Shown piece after piece: positions 28,554 to 58,139 of a DNA stretch of 64,000 nt. Under the pieces are notes generated by a model. That model searched no databases. It worked only from the letters and a program-made list of their open reading frames with translations, and was not told the DNA's origin. This stretch comes from Novosphingobium sp. (GTDB lineage Bacteria; Pseudomonadota; Alphaproteobacteria; Sphingomonadales; Sphingomonadaceae): positions 2,561 to 66,560 of the forward strand of contig JBEQBV010000001.1 in the NCBI GenBank assembly GCA_041639635.1. Reading direction: 5' to 3'. The position numbers and the translations under genes were made by a program. Each line of letters opens with the position of its first letter. Position 1 is the first letter of the stretch.

Positions 28554-29552
28554 ATGACTGCCCAGCCGACCAACCTTTCCGGCCTTGACCTGCGCGAAGA
28601 GATCAACCGTCTGCGCAAGGAACGCAACGCAGTGATCCTGGGGCACTATTATCAGCGCCCGGAAATTCAGGACATTGCCGATTTCGTGGGCGACAGTCTG
28701 GAGCTTTCGCGCAAGGCGGCGGAGACCGATGCCGATGTGATCGCGTTTTGCGGCGTGAAGTTCATGGCCGATACCGCCAAGATCCTGTCCCCGCAAAAGA
28801 TCGTGGTTCTGCCCGATCTGAAAGCCGGTTGCAGCCTTGAGGATTCGTGCCCACCCGACAAGTTCAAGGCGTTCCGCGAAGCCCACCCCGATCATATTGC
28901 GCTGACCTATATCAACTGCTCGACCGAGGTGAAGGCGCTGTCGGACGTGATCGTCACGTCATCAAGCGCAGAGACGATCCTTGCGCAGATCCCGCCCGAA
29001 CAGAAGATCATCTTCGGCCCAGACCGCCATCTTGGCGGCTATCTGAACCGCAAGTTCGGGCGCGATATGCTGCTGTGGCCCGGCGTGTGCATCGTGCATG
29101 AGGCTTTCAGCGAAACCGAACTGCTCAAGCTGATGGCGCAGCACCCCGGCGCGCCGGTGGCAGGCCACCCGGAATGCCCGCCGCATATCCTTGATCATTG
29201 CGACTATGTCGGCTCGACCAGCGGCATCCTGCAATTCGCCAAGACCTTCACCGGCGATACCCTAATCGTGGCGACCGAGCCGCACATCATTTACCAGATG
29301 CAGCTGGCCATCCCCGACAAGACCTTCATCGGTGCACCGGGTGCAGACGGCAACTGCAACTGCAACATCTGCCCGTACATGGCGCTCAACACGATGGAAA
29401 AGCTCTATATCGCGCTGCGCGATCTGCAGCCCCGGATCGAGATTGAGGAGCCGATGCGGCTTGCCGCCAAGAAGAGCCTCGACCGCATGCTGGAAATGGC
29501 CAGCGGCACCGTGGGGATGGGCGATCTGGGCGCACGGCCATTTGGCAGTTAA
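28554..29552 (+). CDS. nadA: quinolinate synthase
   Basis: …RKERNAVILGHYYQRPEIQDIADFVGDSLELS… plus the C-terminal Cys cluster region. Confidence 0.95.
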   Translation: MTAQPTNLSGLDLREEINRLRKERNAVILGHYYQRPEIQDIADFVGDSLELSRKAAETDADVIAFCGVKFMADTAKILSPQKIVVLPDLKAGCSLEDSCPPDKFKAFREAHPDHIALTYINCSTEVKALSDVIVTSSSAETILAQIPPEQKIIFGPDRHLGGYLNRKFGRDMLLWPGVCIVHEAFSETELLKLMAQHPGAPVAGHPECPPHILDHCDYVGSTSGILQFAKTFTGDTLIVATEPHIIYQMQLAIPDKTFIGAPGADGNCNCNICPYMALNTMEKLYIALRDLQPRIEIEEPMRLAAKKSLDRMLEMASGTVGMGDLGARPFGS

Positions 29553-29555
29553 GAC

Positions 29556-30449
29556 TTAGTCCGCCTTACCCTCACCCAACCGCGCCAGCACCAGCGCCGC
29601 GCCGACCAGCGCCATGCCGATGGCGTCTGGAAGGGCAAGCGTCTCGTCAAAGGCCACCCAGCCGACCAGCACCGAGACTGCAGGCTGGGTGAGAAGAACG
29701 AGGCCGATCACCAGCGGCGGGAAATGGCGCAGGGAGTAAACCAGCAGGCCCTGCCCCACGATCTGGCTGGCCAGCATCAGGCCGATGACCGGGCGCCAGT
29801 CATTGGGCCAGACCGGTTCGCCCAAGGCCAGTGCCGTCACCAGCATCACCGGCACCCCGGCAAGGCTTGACCAGAACAGCAGGCTCCACGATCCGAAGCG
29901 CCCGCGAATGCCCTGCACCAGCAGGATGTAGACGACGTAGAACAACCCGGCGAGGATGCAGAACAGGTCTCCCGCCAGCGTACGCGCATCGATTTCCATC
30001 GATCGGCCCAGCAGCAGACCCGCCCCGCCCAGCGCCATCGCCACCGCCGCAAACTCGCGCATGTGCGGGCGGCGGTGCATCGTCACCAGCCCCCAGATCA
30101 TGAGGATCACGCTGCCCGAATTGCCGAACAGCGTTGCATTGCCCAGCTTGGTCATCTCGATCCCGACATGCCAGCTGGCAAGGTCCAGCGCGAACACCAC
30201 GCCCGCCGCCACGATGATCCACCAATCCTTGCGCGCAAAGCCCCACATCGGCTCGCGCCCGCGCAAGGCGAACAGCGCCAGCAGCGGCAATGCCAGCGCC
30301 AGCCGCCATAGCCCTGCTGATACCGGCCCGCTATCGGCCACGCGCACGAACCATGGCCCGAGCGCGAGGGCAATGTTTCCTGTCAGCAGCGCAAGGAAAT
30401 GCTTCGGGCCGGGGCGGAATGACAAGGCTGCGTCACTTGAAATCGTCAT
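29556..30449 (-). CDS. DMT superfamily (EamA-like) transporter
   Basis: Ten hydrophobic segments and a duplicated EamA-like architecture. Confidence 0.8.
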   Translation of the reverse strand: MTISSDAALSFRPGPKHFLALLTGNIALALGPWFVRVADSGPVSAGLWRLALALPLLALFALRGREPMWGFARKDWWIIVAAGVVFALDLASWHVGIEMTKLGNATLFGNSGSVILMIWGLVTMHRRPHMREFAAVAMALGGAGLLLGRSMEIDARTLAGDLFCILAGLFYVVYILLVQGIRGRFGSWSLLFWSSLAGVPVMLVTALALGEPVWPNDWRPVIGLMLASQIVGQGLLVYSLRHFPPLVIGLVLLTQPAVSVLVGWVAFDETLALPDAIGMALVGAALVLARLGEGKAD

Positions 30450-50613: not shown

Positions 50614-51318
50614 TTATCCGCGCGACCAGATCGGCTCGCTGAAACCCGCCATGAACGCATCGTGGCGGGCAAGCTCCTCCGCGCTCGCGGCATGCGGGCG
50701 CGGGGAACGGTATGGGCGTGAAGCGCTGCCAGAAACCAGAACGGTCTCCTGCGCCAGCGCGGCATCGGCTCTTGCGGCAACCTCTGCCGCCAGTTCGAGC
50801 CCGATCTGCCTTCCGCCCAGTAACTCAACATAAAGCTGCGCCAGCAGTTCCGCATCCAGCAGTGCACCATGCTTGGTGCGGTGGCTGCGGTCTATGCCAT
50901 AGCGCGAACACAGCGCATCAAGGCTGAGCTTGGCTCCGGGATGCTTGCGCCGGGCAATGGCAACCGTATCGACCATCCGGTCCCGGCTGACCGGCTCCAG
51001 CCCACACATTTCCAACTCGTTGTTGATGAACCCGAAATCGAACCCGGCATTGTGCGCCACCAGCGGCGCGTCGGCGATGAAATCGAGGAAGTCCCCTGCC
51101 TTCTCGGCAAACTTGGGCTTGTCTGCCAGAAACGTGATCGACAGGCCGTGAACAGCCTCTGCCTCGGCCGGCATGTCACGCTCAGGGTTGAAATAACAAT
51201 GGAAAACCGCGCCAGAAGGCACCCGGTTGACCATTTCGATGCAGCCAATTTCCACCAGCCGATCCCCGCTTCTGGGGTCCAGTCCAGTCGTCTCGGTATC
51301 GAAAACGATCTCACGCAT
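50614..51318 (-). CDS. dnaQ: DNA polymerase III subunit epsilon
   Basis: Exo I motif EIVFDTETTGLD and Exo III motif …HGALLDAELLAQLY…. Confidence 0.93.
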   Translation of the reverse strand: MREIVFDTETTGLDPRSGDRLVEIGCIEMVNRVPSGAVFHCYFNPERDMPAEAEAVHGLSITFLADKPKFAEKAGDFLDFIADAPLVAHNAGFDFGFINNELEMCGLEPVSRDRMVDTVAIARRKHPGAKLSLDALCSRYGIDRSHRTKHGALLDAELLAQLYVELLGGRQIGLELAAEVAARADAALAQETVLVSGSASRPYRSPRPHAASAEELARHDAFMAGFSEPIWSRG

Positions 51319-51972: not shown

Positions 51973-52826
51973 CCCGCAATCCTCCGCCGCAATTCCACGT
52001 CCGCCTCACCCCGCGGCGGCACAGCCCCAAAGAACCGGCGAAACGCATGGTCCGCCTGACCGATCAGCATCGATAGCCCGTCCACCGTACGGAATCCCAA
52101 ACCTCTAGCAGACTTGAGAAACGCCGTATCCAACGGAGAAGTAACGATATCATAGAAGATCGACCCCGGCGGCGCATGGCTCAGGTCAAAGACGAGTGGC
52201 GGCTGCCCGCTCATCCCCAGCGACGAGGCATTGACCACCAGATCAAAACACCCTTCCCGGTCATCAAAGGCAAAGTCGGTCGCATCGGCAAAGTGATCCA
52301 GCGGCGCCACATGGTGCTCGCCGCCCGGGTCAAGCTCATCCAGCAGCGCGCGCGCCTTGTTGCCATTGCGCCCGGCCAGCACGATCACCATCCCCGCATC
52401 GGCCAAGGCCGTGATGATCGCCCGCGCCGCCCCGCCTGTGCCGAGAACCCGCGCCATGCGAAAATAATGCGTCTTGCCCAACTCTTCACGCAACGGCTCC
52501 AGAAACCCCGGCGCGTCGGTGTTATATCCCACCAGCCCACCATCTTCGGGCACGATGGTGTTCACCGCCCCGATCCGCGCGGCCAGCGGATCCAGCCGGT
52601 CGAGCAGCGGGATCACGGCCTGCTTGTGCGGCATCGTCACATTGCAACCGCGCCAATCCGGGTCCGCCCGCCGCGCGGCCAGATAGTCGGCCAGCCCCTC
52701 AGCCGTCACATGGGCCCGGTCATAGCGTCCTCCCAGCCCCAATTGTTCCAGCCAGAACCCATGGATGACCGGCGATTTGGATTGCGCAATCGGGTCCCCG
52801 ATCACTTCGGCATAAGGCGCGCTCAA
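51969..52826 (-). CDS. aroE: shikimate dehydrogenase
   Basis: …[18 protein letters not shown]… and …[10 protein letters not shown]… There is a 4-nt overlap with the neighbour on each side. Confidence 0.9.
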
Positions 52827-53410
52827 GATGCCAGCTCCCCCTGCGCACGCAAGGCGGCAAGCAGCGCCAGCAAGGGCATCCCCAGCACGCTGAAGTGGCT
52901 GCCGTCGATCTGCTCAAACAGCTGCACCCCCAGCGCCTCAATGCGAAACACCCCAACACAGCCCGAAACAGCGGGCCATTCGCTGTCGAGATAGCTCTGG
53001 ATAAATTGTGGAGAAAGCACCCGAACCTGCAGATTTGCGGTCTCGCAGGTTTTCCACACCACTTGTCCATCACGCATCAGCACAGCGGCGGAATGGAGGT
53101 GCATTTGCTTGCCCGAAAAGAACTCCAGATGCTCCACGGCATTTTCCCGGCTCACCGGCTTGTCGAATTGCCGCCCGGCCACTTCGACCAGCGAATCCCC
53201 GCCCAGCACCAGCCGGCCGGGCATCGCCGATGATACGCACAGCGCTTTGGCCTCGGCCAGAACGCTGGCGATCTGGCAGCCCGGCACCCCGATCAACTCG
53301 CGCTTGATCGCCCCTTCATCCACATCAGAAGCCCGCGCCTCAAACGGCACGCCTGCAGCTTCGAGCATCATCTTGCGCGATGCACTCTGGCTTGCCAGCA
53401 CCAGTGTCAT
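52823..53410 (-). CDS. maf: Maf family nucleotide pyrophosphatase
   Basis: …[21 protein letters not shown]… and …GGDSLVEV…. Confidence 0.9.
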
Positions 53411-54246
53411 ATCGGCTTCACCCCATCCCCGCTGCCACCTGCGGCCACACGTTCATTGTAAAGATTGATCACCGCTGCAGCCGTTTCTTCAATAGAGCGG
53501 CGCGAAACGTCAATCACCGCCCAGCCATTATCGGCAAACATGCGCCGGGCATACTGCACTTCGCGGGTCACTTGCTCGTTGTCGACATAGGCTGTCTCGG
53601 GTGCCTGGTTGAGCGACAGCAGCCGGTTGCGCCGCACTGCGATCAGCCGTTCCGGGCTCGTCGTCAGCCCCACCACCAATGGACGCCGCAAGGAAAAAAG
53701 CATCGGTGGCGGCGGGCTTTCCACCACGATCGGGATATTGGCCACCTTGTATCCGCGGTTGGCGAGGTAAATCGAGGTCGGCGTCTTGGAACTGCGCGAA
53801 ACCCCCGCCAGCACGATATCGGCCTCTTCCCAGTTCTCCCAGTTCACCCCATCATCATGCGCAATGGTGAACTGGATCGCATCAACCCTGCGGAAATAGG
53901 CCTCATCCATGATGTGCTGACGGCCCGGACGGCCCTTGGCCTGCACGCCCAGCTGCTGCTGCAAGGCATCGGTCACCGTATCGAGCGCCGCGACACTCGG
54001 CAGACCCAGCGCCATGCACCGCTGCTCCAGCCGTTCGCGCGTTTCGGTATTGACCAGCGTATAGAGCACCAGCCCCGGATTTGCCGCAATCTCGCCCATG
54101 ATGCGATCCAGATGCTGCATCGATCGCACCATCGGCCAGAAATGCCGTACCACATCGGCCCCATCGAATTGCGCCAGCGCCGCCTTGGCAATCATTTCCA
54201 GCGTTTCGCCGGTGGAATCCGACAGGAGATGCAGGTGCAGACGCAT
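53407..54246 (-). CDS. pyruvate, water/phosphate dikinase regulatory protein (DUF299, RP001-type)
   Basis: [17 protein letters not shown]… and P-loop [15 protein letters not shown]. Confidence 0.9.
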
Positions 54247-54579
54247 CCGTGAGGCCTTTGTGGAGGGCCCATCCCGCCAACGGGACAGACTTGTGGAAAC
54301 CCCGCCGATAAACCACGGGAGAGGATCAGGGACAAGTTCAGACCCCTATTTCACGCTCCCTTCGAGTCCTGCTCCGCTCAGTTTGTCGACAGGTGGACAG
54401 GGTTTTCCCCAGCCTGTGGAGAGTGGTGAGAACTTCAGCTTGACCCGAAACTGTCCAGAGTCGCAGACACCGAAAAGTGTGGAAGCGGACTCACAAATCG
54501 GGCAGACCACCACAAACCCCGATATCCACAGGGCCAACTAACACCATCAACCTGATTCTAAGAATCTAGTTTAAGTAGA
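54247..54579. other. candidate chromosomal replication origin (oriC)
   Basis: The hemE / DUF299 intergenic position is the one occupied by Cori in Caulobacter and Rickettsia. TGTGGA-core DnaA-box-like motifs lie at 54259, 54292, 54415 and 54478 (all same orientation), plus ATATCCACA (8/9) at 54522-54530. GANTC sites lie at 54364, 54458, 54488, 54554 and 54562. An AT-rich tract spans 54538-54585. Confidence 0.5.
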
Positions 54580-55635
54580 ATGGATCGAAGCACGATGCCT
54601 GAAACGCCCGAAGCCGGCCCCCTTCTCCGCACGCTCAGAGGGGAAAACCTTGCTTCCCGGCCGATCTGGCTAATGCGGCAGGCCGGGCGCTATCTGCCCG
54701 AATACCGCGCGCTCCGTGCCGAAAAGGGCGGCTTCCTCGCGCTGGTCTATGATACCGATGCCGCGGCCGAAGTTACCGTGCAGCCGATCCGCCGCTTTGG
54801 CTTCGATGGCGCGATCCTGTTTTCCGATATCCTGATCGTGCCTTACGCGATGGGGCAGGATCTGAAATTCCTCGTCGGCGAAGGCCCCGACCTTTCTCCC
54901 CGCCTGCTCGATGTGGCACTGGAAAGCCTCACCGCCGTGCCAGAGCGCCTTTCCCCGATCTACGAGACGGTGGCCAAGGTAAAAGCGCTGATCAGCCCTC
55001 AAACCACGCTGCTGGGCTTTGCAGGGTCTCCGTGGACGGTCGCCACCTACATGGTCGCTGGCGAAGGCAGCCGCGATCACCATGATACCCGCGCGCTCGC
55101 CTATCGCGATCCTTCGGCGTTTCAGGCGATCATCGACGCGATCTGCGATGTGACGATCGAATACCTTTCAGGTCAGGCTGATGCGGGCGCGCAGGGCCTG
55201 CAACTGTTCGATTCCTGGGCCGGCAGCCTCTCGCCCGCGCAGTTCGAACGCTGGGTCATTGCCCCCAATGCCAAGATCACCGCCGAAATGCAGCGCCGCT
55301 ATCCGCACGTGCCGATCATCGGCTTCCCCAAGGGCGCGGGCGAAAAGCTTGCCGCCTATGCCCGCGAAACCGGCGTCAATGCCGTGGGCGTGGATGAAAC
55401 CATCGACCCGCTGTGGGCCGCGCGCGAATTGCCCGCTGGTATGCCGGTGCAGGGTAATCTCGATCCGCTGCTGTTGCTTTCAGGCGGCGCAGACTTGGAA
55501 AAGCACACGATCCGCGTGCTCGAAGCCTTCGCCGACCGCCCGCATGTTTTCAACCTTGGCCACGGCATCGGCCAGCATACACCCATCGAAAACGTCGAGG
55601 CGCTGCTGAAGATCGTGCGGGGCTGGTCGCATTGA
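54580..55635 (+). CDS. hemE: uroporphyrinogen decarboxylase
   Basis: …RPIWLMRQAGRYLPEYRALR… The start is ATG 54580 or ATG 54595. Confidence 0.94.
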   Translation: MDRSTMPETPEAGPLLRTLRGENLASRPIWLMRQAGRYLPEYRALRAEKGGFLALVYDTDAAAEVTVQPIRRFGFDGAILFSDILIVPYAMGQDLKFLVGEGPDLSPRLLDVALESLTAVPERLSPIYETVAKVKALISPQTTLLGFAGSPWTVATYMVAGEGSRDHHDTRALAYRDPSAFQAIIDAICDVTIEYLSGQADAGAQGLQLFDSWAGSLSPAQFERWVIAPNAKITAEMQRRYPHVPIIGFPKGAGEKLAAYARETGVNAVGVDETIDPLWAARELPAGMPVQGNLDPLLLLSGGADLEKHTIRVLEAFADRPHVFNLGHGIGQHTPIENVEALLKIVRGWSH

Positions 55636-56712: not shown

Positions 56713-56882
56713 GCCGGGCGGCCATCCCTGATTGACTAAACCTGCCCCACGGCATATCCCCGCGTCGTCCGGAACACAGATGCGCTGCCCCTGATGCAGC
56801 CGCCCTCTTGCTTTCTCCAAGCCCTTCAGAGGCTTCCGGCCATCGACCTACCCCTTTGCATTCCCATTGGAATCACACGAAA

Positions 56883-58139
56883 ATGCACCTGAAAGAACTC
56901 AAGAAAAAAACCCCGGCAGAGCTGGTCCAGATGGCCGAAGAGCTCGAGGTCGAAGGCGCCAGCACGCTGCGCCGCCAGGACCTGATGTTCGCCATCCTCA
57001 AGGAAATGGCTGAAGACGGCGAAGAAATCCTTGGCATCGGCACCATCGAAGTCCTGCCCGATGGCTTCGGTTTCCTGCGCAGCCCCGAAGCGAACTACCT
57101 CGCCGGGCCTGATGACATCTATGTCTCGCCCAACCAGGTCCGCAAGTGGGGCCTGCGCACTGGCGATACGGTCGAAGGCGAAGTCCGCGCGCCCAAGGAT
57201 GGCGAGCGCTATTTCGCGATCACCCGCCTGATCAAGGTCAACTTCGACGAGCCTGACGCCGTCCGCCATCGCGTCAACTTTGACAACCTGACCCCGCTCT
57301 ATCCCAACGAGCGCCTGAAGCTCGACACGCTTGATCCCACGGTCAAGGACAAGTCGGCGCGCGTGATCGATCTGATCAGCCCGCAAGGCAAGGGCCAGCG
57401 CGCGCTGATCGTCGCTCCGCCCCGTACCGGCAAGACCGTGCTCTTGCAGAACATGGCCAAGGCCATCACCGACAATCACCCGGAAGTGTTCCTGATCGTC
57501 CTGCTGGTCGATGAACGTCCCGAGGAAGTCACCGACATGCAGCGCAGCGTGAAGGGTGAGGTTATCTCCTCAACCTTTGACGAGCCTGCCACCCGCCACG
57601 TGCAGGTTGCCGAAATGGTGATCGAAAAGGCCAAGCGCCTGGTCGAACACAAGCGCGATGTCGTGATCCTGCTCGATTCGATCACCCGCCTTGGCCGTGC
57701 CTACAACACCGTCGTGCCTTCATCGGGCAAAGTGCTGACCGGCGGTGTCGATGCCAACGCCCTGCAGCGTCCGAAGCGCTTCTTCGGTGCAGCCCGCAAT
57801 ATCGAAGAAGGCGGTTCGCTCTCGATCATCGCTACCGCGCTGATCGATACCGGCAGCCGCATGGATGAAGTGATTTTCGAAGAGTTCAAGGGCACCGGCA
57901 ACTCGGAAATCGTGCTCGACCGCAAGGTTTCCGACAAGCGCATCTTCCCCGCGCTCGACGTGGGCAAGAGTGGCACCCGCAAGGAAGAACTGCTCGTGCC
58001 GAAGGATCAGCTGTCAAAGATGTGGGTCCTGCGCCGTATCCTCATGCAGATGGGCACGATCGACGCGATGGAATTCCTGCTCGACAAGATCAAGGATTCC
58101 AAGACCAACGAAGATTTTTTCGCAACGATGAACCAGTAA
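56883..58139 (+). CDS. rho: transcription termination factor Rho
   Basis: [25 protein letters not shown]…, an RNA-binding cold-shock-like domain and Walker [12 protein letters not shown]. Confidence 0.96.

Follow-up and report, generated by a model that had tools for sequence, protein, structure and literature searches.

A predicted hemE-linked chromosomal replication origin in a Novosphingobium draft genome

We analysed a stretch of 64,000 nucleotides (nt) of Novosphingobium sp. DNA, hereafter the window, focusing on the gap between a DUF299 gene and hemE as a candidate chromosomal replication origin (oriC). The window lies on contig C1 (73.6 kb) of a 3.84-Mb draft genome in 383 contigs. The gap is bounded by the start codon of the DUF299 gene at 54246, on the minus strand, and by the first ATG of hemE at 54580. 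Hence, it covers 333 bp (54247-54579), and its GC content is 0.55 compared with ~0.62 around it. A second in-frame hemE ATG at 54595 would lengthen the gap to 348 bp (to 54594), the end coordinate given in an earlier note on this DNA. The hemE genes of relatives align only from residue ~13. Hence, hemE may start at 54595 rather than at 54580.

The DUF299 gene is the first of a leftward cluster, DUF299-maf-aroE-coaE-dnaQ, while hemE opens a rightward arm (Table 1). Beyond DUF299, the Caulobacter gene order is also maf-aroE-coaE-dnaQ. The match of the window to this order had been recognised in the earlier note, and the gene order of the window is borne out by NCBIfam assignments and by synteny in 80 Sphingomonadales loci. 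The order dnaQ-coaE-aroE-maf-(DUF299) / hemE-rho is kept in all of the loci fetched, DUF299 having been lost in a few lineages, and the gap measures ~250-430 bp in nearly all of them. The closest relative of hemE is from Novosphingobium huizhouense (90% identity). Other Novosphingobium, Erythrobacter-type and Sphingomonas-type genomes follow.

The gap contains a cluster of sites resembling the DnaA box consensus, TTATCCACA. A script check recovered each motif listed in the earlier note. These are TGTGGA on the + strand (54259, 54292, 54415 and 54478), ATATCCACA at 54522-54530 with 8/9 identity to TTATCCACA, GANTC (54364, 54458, 54488, 54554 and 54562) and an AT-rich string at 54538-54581. In total, the 333 bp hold five core 6-mers (TGTGGA/TCCACA) and five sites with two or fewer mismatches to the consensus. 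Conservation divides the five DnaA-type sites proposed earlier: those at 54292, 54415 and 54522 are conserved, the site at 54478 is shared by a few Novosphingobium only, and that at 54259 occurs in no relative. Two conserved box-like sites, at 54383-54400 and 54403-54411, had been overlooked. The sequence TTTTCCCCA, part of a convergent pair, resembles the weak W-box of Caulobacter. The sequence TCCACAGGGCCAAC is unique in the genome. Coordinates of all features are collected in Table 1.

Table 1. Features of the DUF299/hemE locus; positions are those of the window
Feature	Position	Strand	Remarks
Candidate oriC, whole DUF299/hemE gap	54247-54579		Box-core cluster; conservation; skew minima of relatives nearby
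Weak box-like site TGTGGAGGG, 3 mismatches	54259-54267	-	Alignment gap in every relative; not conserved
Predicted DnaA box 1, TGTGGAAAC (relatives: TGTGGAYAR)	54292-54300	-	Conserved in nearly all aligned Sphingomonadales gaps
13-mer ATAAACCACGGGA	54308-54320	+	13/13 identical in 28/79 gaps
GANTC (GAGTC), presumed CcrM site	54364-54368		Others at 54458, 54488, 54554, 54562
Degenerate tandem boxes TTGTCGACAGGTGGACAG	54383-54400	-	Relatives carry TTGTGGACATGTGGAC
Convergent box pair, TTTTCCCCA (+) - GCC - TGTGGAGAG (-)	54403-54423		Relatives: TATCCACAGsCTGTGGATAA; kept in both lineages of the order
CTTGAC - 13 nt - GAGTC (GANTC)	54439-54462	+	Conserved alignment columns
Weak box TGTGGAAGC, 3 mismatches	54478-54486	-	Few Novosphingobium only; other relatives have CTGTTCA here
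Conserved block AAATCGGGCAG	54495-54505	+	9 occurrences in genome, not unique
Module CCCCG-ATATCCACA-GGGCCAAC, hemE-proximal predicted box (54522-54530) and GC-rich spacer	54517-54538	+	Near-invariant in Novosphingobium/Erythrobacter-type lineage
Five NAN triplets (AAC TAA CAC CAT CAA) after GGGCC spacer, formal DnaA-trio pattern of the basal unwinding system (BUS)	54536-54550	+	Also in locus L014
AT-rich block, candidate DNA-unwinding element, 70% AT over 40 nt	54546-54585		Top 0.003% of window 40-mers, top 0.09% of genome
dnaQ	50614-51318	-	NCBIfam
coaE, aroE	Between dnaQ and maf	-	NCBIfam
maf	52823-53410	-	NCBIfam
DUF299/PpsR-type kinase-phosphorylase gene (RP001/CCNA_00001 homologue)	53407-54246	-	NF003742, E = 3.7e-98
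hemE (uroporphyrinogen decarboxylase), opens rightward arm hemE, GNAT, rho	54580-55635	+	TIGR01464, E = 5.4e-113
rho	56808-58139	+	NCBIfam; GNAT acetyltransferase gene (+) between hemE and rho

The clustering of core 6-mers is exceptional. Genome-wide, TGTGGA/TCCACA occurs at 0.385 per kb. Hence, ~0.13 sites are expected per 333 bp and the gap has five. It is the sole 333-bp segment with at least five such sites in the 3.84-Mb draft. Within the window, we counted 32 sites compared with 24 ± 5.5 in shuffles, and five fall in a 272-bp span of the gap. Similarly, across 841 kb of a related Novosphingobium genome (G001), the homologous gap is the sole cluster of at least three near-consensus boxes.

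Other box clusters in the draft, which equal or approach the gap under looser criteria, were considered and rejected as artefacts. The cluster at C16:29478 is a coding segment with 46% GC and zero core 6-mers; it was flagged because AT-rich sequence matches DnaA boxes loosely. The cluster on C74 is coding sequence, and that on C190 belongs to the LH1 genes of a puf operon, which are rich in Trp. Two side observations concern these contigs. The C16 segment (29478-29840) stands out from the 62%-GC genome and was probably acquired horizontally. The photosynthetic puf operon (C190:3738-7528) encodes LH1 beta/alpha, PufL, PufM and the cytochrome PufC. Hence, this Novosphingobium-like organism appears to be an aerobic anoxygenic phototroph.

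The gap was aligned with those of 19 Novosphingobium/Erythrobacter-type relatives, and a second alignment covered 19 gaps from the Sphingomonas/Sphingopyxis-type lineage. One plan is common to both lineages, with boxes at fixed places across genera. On the DUF299 side stands a reverse-orientation box, TGTGGAYAR (54292 here). Next comes a central group with the convergent pair TATCCACAGsCTGTGGATAA, which is degenerate here (54403-54423) and has TTGTCGACAGGTGGACAG just before it. A TTGAC motif and a positionally fixed GANTC follow (54439-54462), and then the block CTGTTsrCA...AwTTCGGGCA. The fifth element combines CCCCG, a forward box and GsGCCAAC (54517-54538; the box is ATATCCACA here). Finally, an AT-rich block with more GANTC sites lies directly before hemE.

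Each lineage has its own variant of this plan. Gaps of the Novosphingobium/Erythrobacter-type contain the ATAAACCACGGGA block and a box ~36-62 nt from hemE. The Sphingomonas-type carries GCTGTTGGCA...ATAAGCCCCG instead. We had considered Sphingomonas-type CTGTTGGCA as an inverted copy of GCCAACAG; this was dropped, the alignment showing collinear homologous blocks. Sphingopyxis loci (L062, L066 and L072) align to the same architecture, and Sphingopyxis and Sphingomonas gaps have two or three perfect TTATCCACA/TGTGGATAA sites each.

The AT-rich block is found at the same hemE-side position in all aligned relatives. Its most extreme part, a 30-mer at 54552-54581, is 73% AT and ranks within the top 0.02% for the window and the top 0.08% for the genome. 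The hemE-proximal box faces this block, an orientation matching that of E. coli box R1 relative to the unwinding element. Two of the GANTC sites (54554 and 54562) fall inside the AT-rich block. GANTC is depleted genome-wide (observed/expected = 0.40), and 333-bp segments with at least five sites make up only 5e-4 of genome windows. Across 79 gaps, GANTC density is 14.2 per kb, as opposed to 2.45 per kb for the loci around them. A single PF01555 methyltransferase is encoded in the genome, and its match to Caulobacter CcrM (PDB 6PBD; E = 5e-155) is full-length. This protein is a CcrM orthologue, and methylation of GANTC in the gap is presumed. Together, CTTGAC and GANTC at 54439-54462 may constitute a methylation-sensitive promoter element.

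The earlier note had interpreted the gap as a candidate origin. Our analysis supports this interpretation by synteny, the genome-unique box cluster, the order-wide box architecture, GANTC enrichment alongside a CcrM orthologue, the AT-rich block and published predictions. We conclude that the DUF299/hemE gap is very probably the chromosomal oriC, a predicted origin of the hemE-linked alphaproteobacterial type for which Caulobacter Cori is the archetype.

Briefly, such an origin could work as follows. DnaA-ATP would fill mostly weak boxes over ~240 bp (54292, 54383-54423 and 54522), supplemented by the lineage-specific sites at 54259 and 54478. The box ATATCCACA and the GC-rich spacer GGGCC would point the DnaA oligomer toward the AT-rich block at ~54546-54585, where duplex opening and helicase loading would take place. 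Forks would exit both ways, co-oriented with the diverging DUF299-maf-aroE-coaE-dnaQ and hemE-rho arms. The CcrM orthologue would methylate the five GANTC sites, and the origin would go from fully methylated to hemimethylated on firing. Unlike in Caulobacter, a direct CtrA gate would not operate, the gap having zero TTAA-N7-TTAA sites.

The draft gives no chromosome-wide GC skew curve, and we sampled relatives with the locus on Mb-scale contigs. For G001 (4.14-Mb contig), twenty 20-kb samples were positive from ~0 to 2.07 Mb and negative from 2.28 to 3.73 Mb. This whole-chromosome sign pattern fits an origin at the gap. In a continuous stretch of 841 kb, cumulative skew is lowest at C2:93,122, 10 kb from the gap (82,590-82,910). 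For Erythrobacter sp. NAP1 (G004; 600 kb), clearly negative 20-kb bins stop at the gap (2.677 Mb). Beyond it come a flat stretch, the minimum at 2.724 Mb, 47 kb away, and then a rise. Sphingomonas daechungensis (G005) is roughly consistent, with a minus-to-plus switch at ~1.2-1.5 Mb and hemE at 1.59 Mb. We also ordered and oriented the contigs of the draft on G001. To the right of the site 18/24 were positive, and the 0-70 kb to the left were mostly negative. The skew minimum of this pseudo-scaffold lies ~16-25 kb to the hemE side. Within the tens-of-kb skew zone, the hemE gap is the sole DnaA-box cluster, both in this genome and in G001. Separately, we note that + strand skew is negative from 54580 to the end of C1 though nearly all genes there are on the + strand, the opposite of leading-strand expectation.

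Several observations count against an origin at the gap. The earlier note had anticipated a skew sign switch at the site. None was seen on C1, where cumulative G-C keeps falling through the gap. In the 16 kb on the hemE side, + strand skew is -0.06 to -0.12, the wrong sign. Hence, the skew minimum of this genome would be at least 16 kb from the site. The test on C1 is uninformative: the contig has just 16 kb rightward of the site, and an amplitude of only 0.01-0.03 stands against noise of ~±0.05 at the 10-kb scale. With such values, skew localises the origin only within tens of kb. For G003, coarse skew was ambiguous, possibly owing to rearrangements. Gene-strand polarity, from a crude open reading frame caller filtered on GC at third codon positions (GC3), is clean for ~7 kb leftward of the site and mixed further left. 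The sole box in the gap within one mismatch of the consensus is ATATCCACA, the TGTGGA sites being 2-3 mismatches off. A scan for sigma-70 consensus promoters and terminators found none. Unlike Cori, the whole 64-kb window has zero matches to the IHF consensus, WATCAANNNNTTR. In addition, published origins at the hemE locus of sphingomonads are all predictions, not experiments.

The triplet run next to the hemE-proximal box belongs with these points. A search rule for the BUS calls for a box with two or fewer mismatches, a spacer of up to 16 bp and at least three NAN trios (PMC8287927, PMC6669920). The window formally shows this pattern: a GC-rich spacer of 5 bp separates a one-mismatch box from five NAN triplets, with AT-rich DNA beyond. 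It differs in that the run is not conserved in relatives and is no commoner than in shuffles, the pattern being present in 17/64 relatives and 27.5% of shuffles. Hence, the DnaA-trio run is unsupported as a conserved feature and we do not claim a BUS.

Could the gap merely drive and regulate the divergent transcription of hemE and the DUF299 operon? The boxes would then be transcriptional and the origin would lie elsewhere, for example 16 kb or more away on the hemE side, where this genome would have its skew minimum. The absence of a skew switch on C1 would suit such a reading, as would the weakness of most boxes, and the conserved TTGAC and 13-mer could be promoter elements. However, we found no further box cluster in the genome, or in the 841 kb around the G001 skew minimum, and the skew minima of relatives fall 10-47 kb from the gap, inside the noise. 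Moreover, promoter and origin roles are compatible; in Caulobacter, duf299 and hemE transcripts both start inside Cori (PMC6393856). We therefore regard a purely transcriptional role as quite improbable and favour an origin at the gap.

Bacterial origins are most commonly linked to dnaA, with E. coli relatives and Bacillus as examples. By this precedent, the origin would lie beside dnaA and the hemE gap would be a relic. The data make this scarcely credible. In the draft, the 1.3 kb upstream of dnaA (contig C332) contain zero boxes at two or fewer mismatches and zero core 6-mers. In six relatives (G001-G006; loci L014, L034, L029, L032, L050 and L016), dnaA is 0.3-1.3 Mb from hemE. For G001, dnaA is at 390 kb, far up the rising arm of the skew curve. 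In G004, the curve declines steadily, without inflection, across dnaA (2.295 Mb), and in G005 dnaA (2.82 Mb) sits at the opposite, terminus-like skew switch. A dnaA-adjacent oriC was ruled out by the distance from hemE, the box-free upstream region and the lack of a skew inflection at dnaA in G004.

The maf gene has four 9-mers within one mismatch of TTATCCACA. These are TCTGGATAA, TGTGGAGAA, TTTTCCACA and TCATCCACA, starting at 52996, 53007, 53050 and 53316. Such sites occur at a rate of 0.089 per kb, and these four, within 330 bp, are the top cluster genome-wide. In this Novosphingobium clade, the origin could extend beyond the gap or be bipartite, with auxiliary DnaA sites in maf (52996-53324). 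The closest relatives (L001, L002, L012 and L014) have two of the sites at matching maf offsets, and there is a parallel in Cori, which overlaps the duf299 open reading frame. However, ~75 other Sphingomonadales loci lack the maf sites. The sites are also part of a coding region, in which common ancestry and constraints on codons can account for their retention in close relatives. We consider an extended origin unlikely and take the gap itself as the predicted oriC.

The 13-mer ATAAACCACGGGA is conserved more strictly than any DnaA box. All 28 gaps with an identical copy belong to the Novosphingobium/Erythrobacter-type lineage and represent several genera. It is nearly always 7-8 nt after box 1 and is unique in the genome. 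Its TAAACCACG portion agrees with the DnaA box consensus at 6/9 positions and, with box 1, makes up an inverted repeat. Around the 13-mer, RNAalifold recovered only the pairing with box 1 (TGTGG/CCACG), with zero covariation. Hence, this is an inverted repeat at the DNA level, not an RNA. An Rfam search at E-values up to 1 returned nothing at the gap. The 13-mer may act as a promoter element for the DUF299 operon, as an atypical DnaA site or as a target for an unknown factor. More speculatively, it might be bound by an undescribed origin-specific regulator, or serve as an unusual high-affinity DnaA site. Either could replace CtrA gating in Novosphingobium/Erythrobacter-type origins free of CtrA sites. 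We offer this as a tentative suggestion and rather doubt it.

Annotating the origin of a fragmented Novosphingobium draft aids contig ordering, growth-rate estimates from read depth and the design of shuttle vectors. The comparative gain is that hemE-linked origins of sphingomonads emerge as one order-wide architecture, without CtrA sites and with two lineage-specific variants. Caulobacter already provides a known example of this type of origin, and predictions exist for sphingomonads, Novosphingobium included. Our finding is sound but ordinary, and leaves the picture of how alphaproteobacterial origins work unchanged.

Caulobacter Cori lies at hemE, overlapping duf299. Its seven DnaA boxes are weak or moderate, and it also has five CtrA sites, five GANTC sites, one IHF site and an AT-rich region (PMC6393856). 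The gap described here resembles it in several respects. Both lie between hemE and the DUF299 gene, inside divergent transcription units. Each contains several DnaA boxes that are mostly weak, among them a TCCCCA W-box-like site, and each has five GANTC sites and an AT-rich region toward hemE. Both genomes encode CcrM. There are also differences. In place of the five CtrA sites of Cori, the gap has a single TTAA, and TTAA-N7-TTAA is likewise missing from the gaps of 79 relatives. We conclude that CtrA sites are specific to Caulobacter-like origins and unneeded for the wider hemE-linked class. A small RNA lies within Cori, whereas the gap has no Rfam match or structured-RNA signal. Conversely, the gap carries the invariant ATAAACCACGGGA, which is not among the Cori elements described (PMC6393856). 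Finally, Cori was mapped experimentally, while the Novosphingobium origin is a prediction.

Closer parallels come from sphingomonads. Predictions by Ori-Finder and DoriC put oriC next to hemE in most Sphingomonadaceae, where boxes are conserved and an unwinding element is proposed, as in Sphingopyxis granuli TFA (PMC4741004). The same location was predicted for Chr1 of Sphingobium strains UT26, TKS, MI1205 and MM-1 (PMC5144681) and for Novosphingobium sp. PP1Y and N. aromaticivorans (PMC4059872). Our candidate differs from these in its more degenerate boxes, only one being within one mismatch of the consensus. It shares with them the locus, the gene neighbourhood, the reliance on skew and DnaA-box evidence and, upstream of hemE, conserved boxes with a putative unwinding element.

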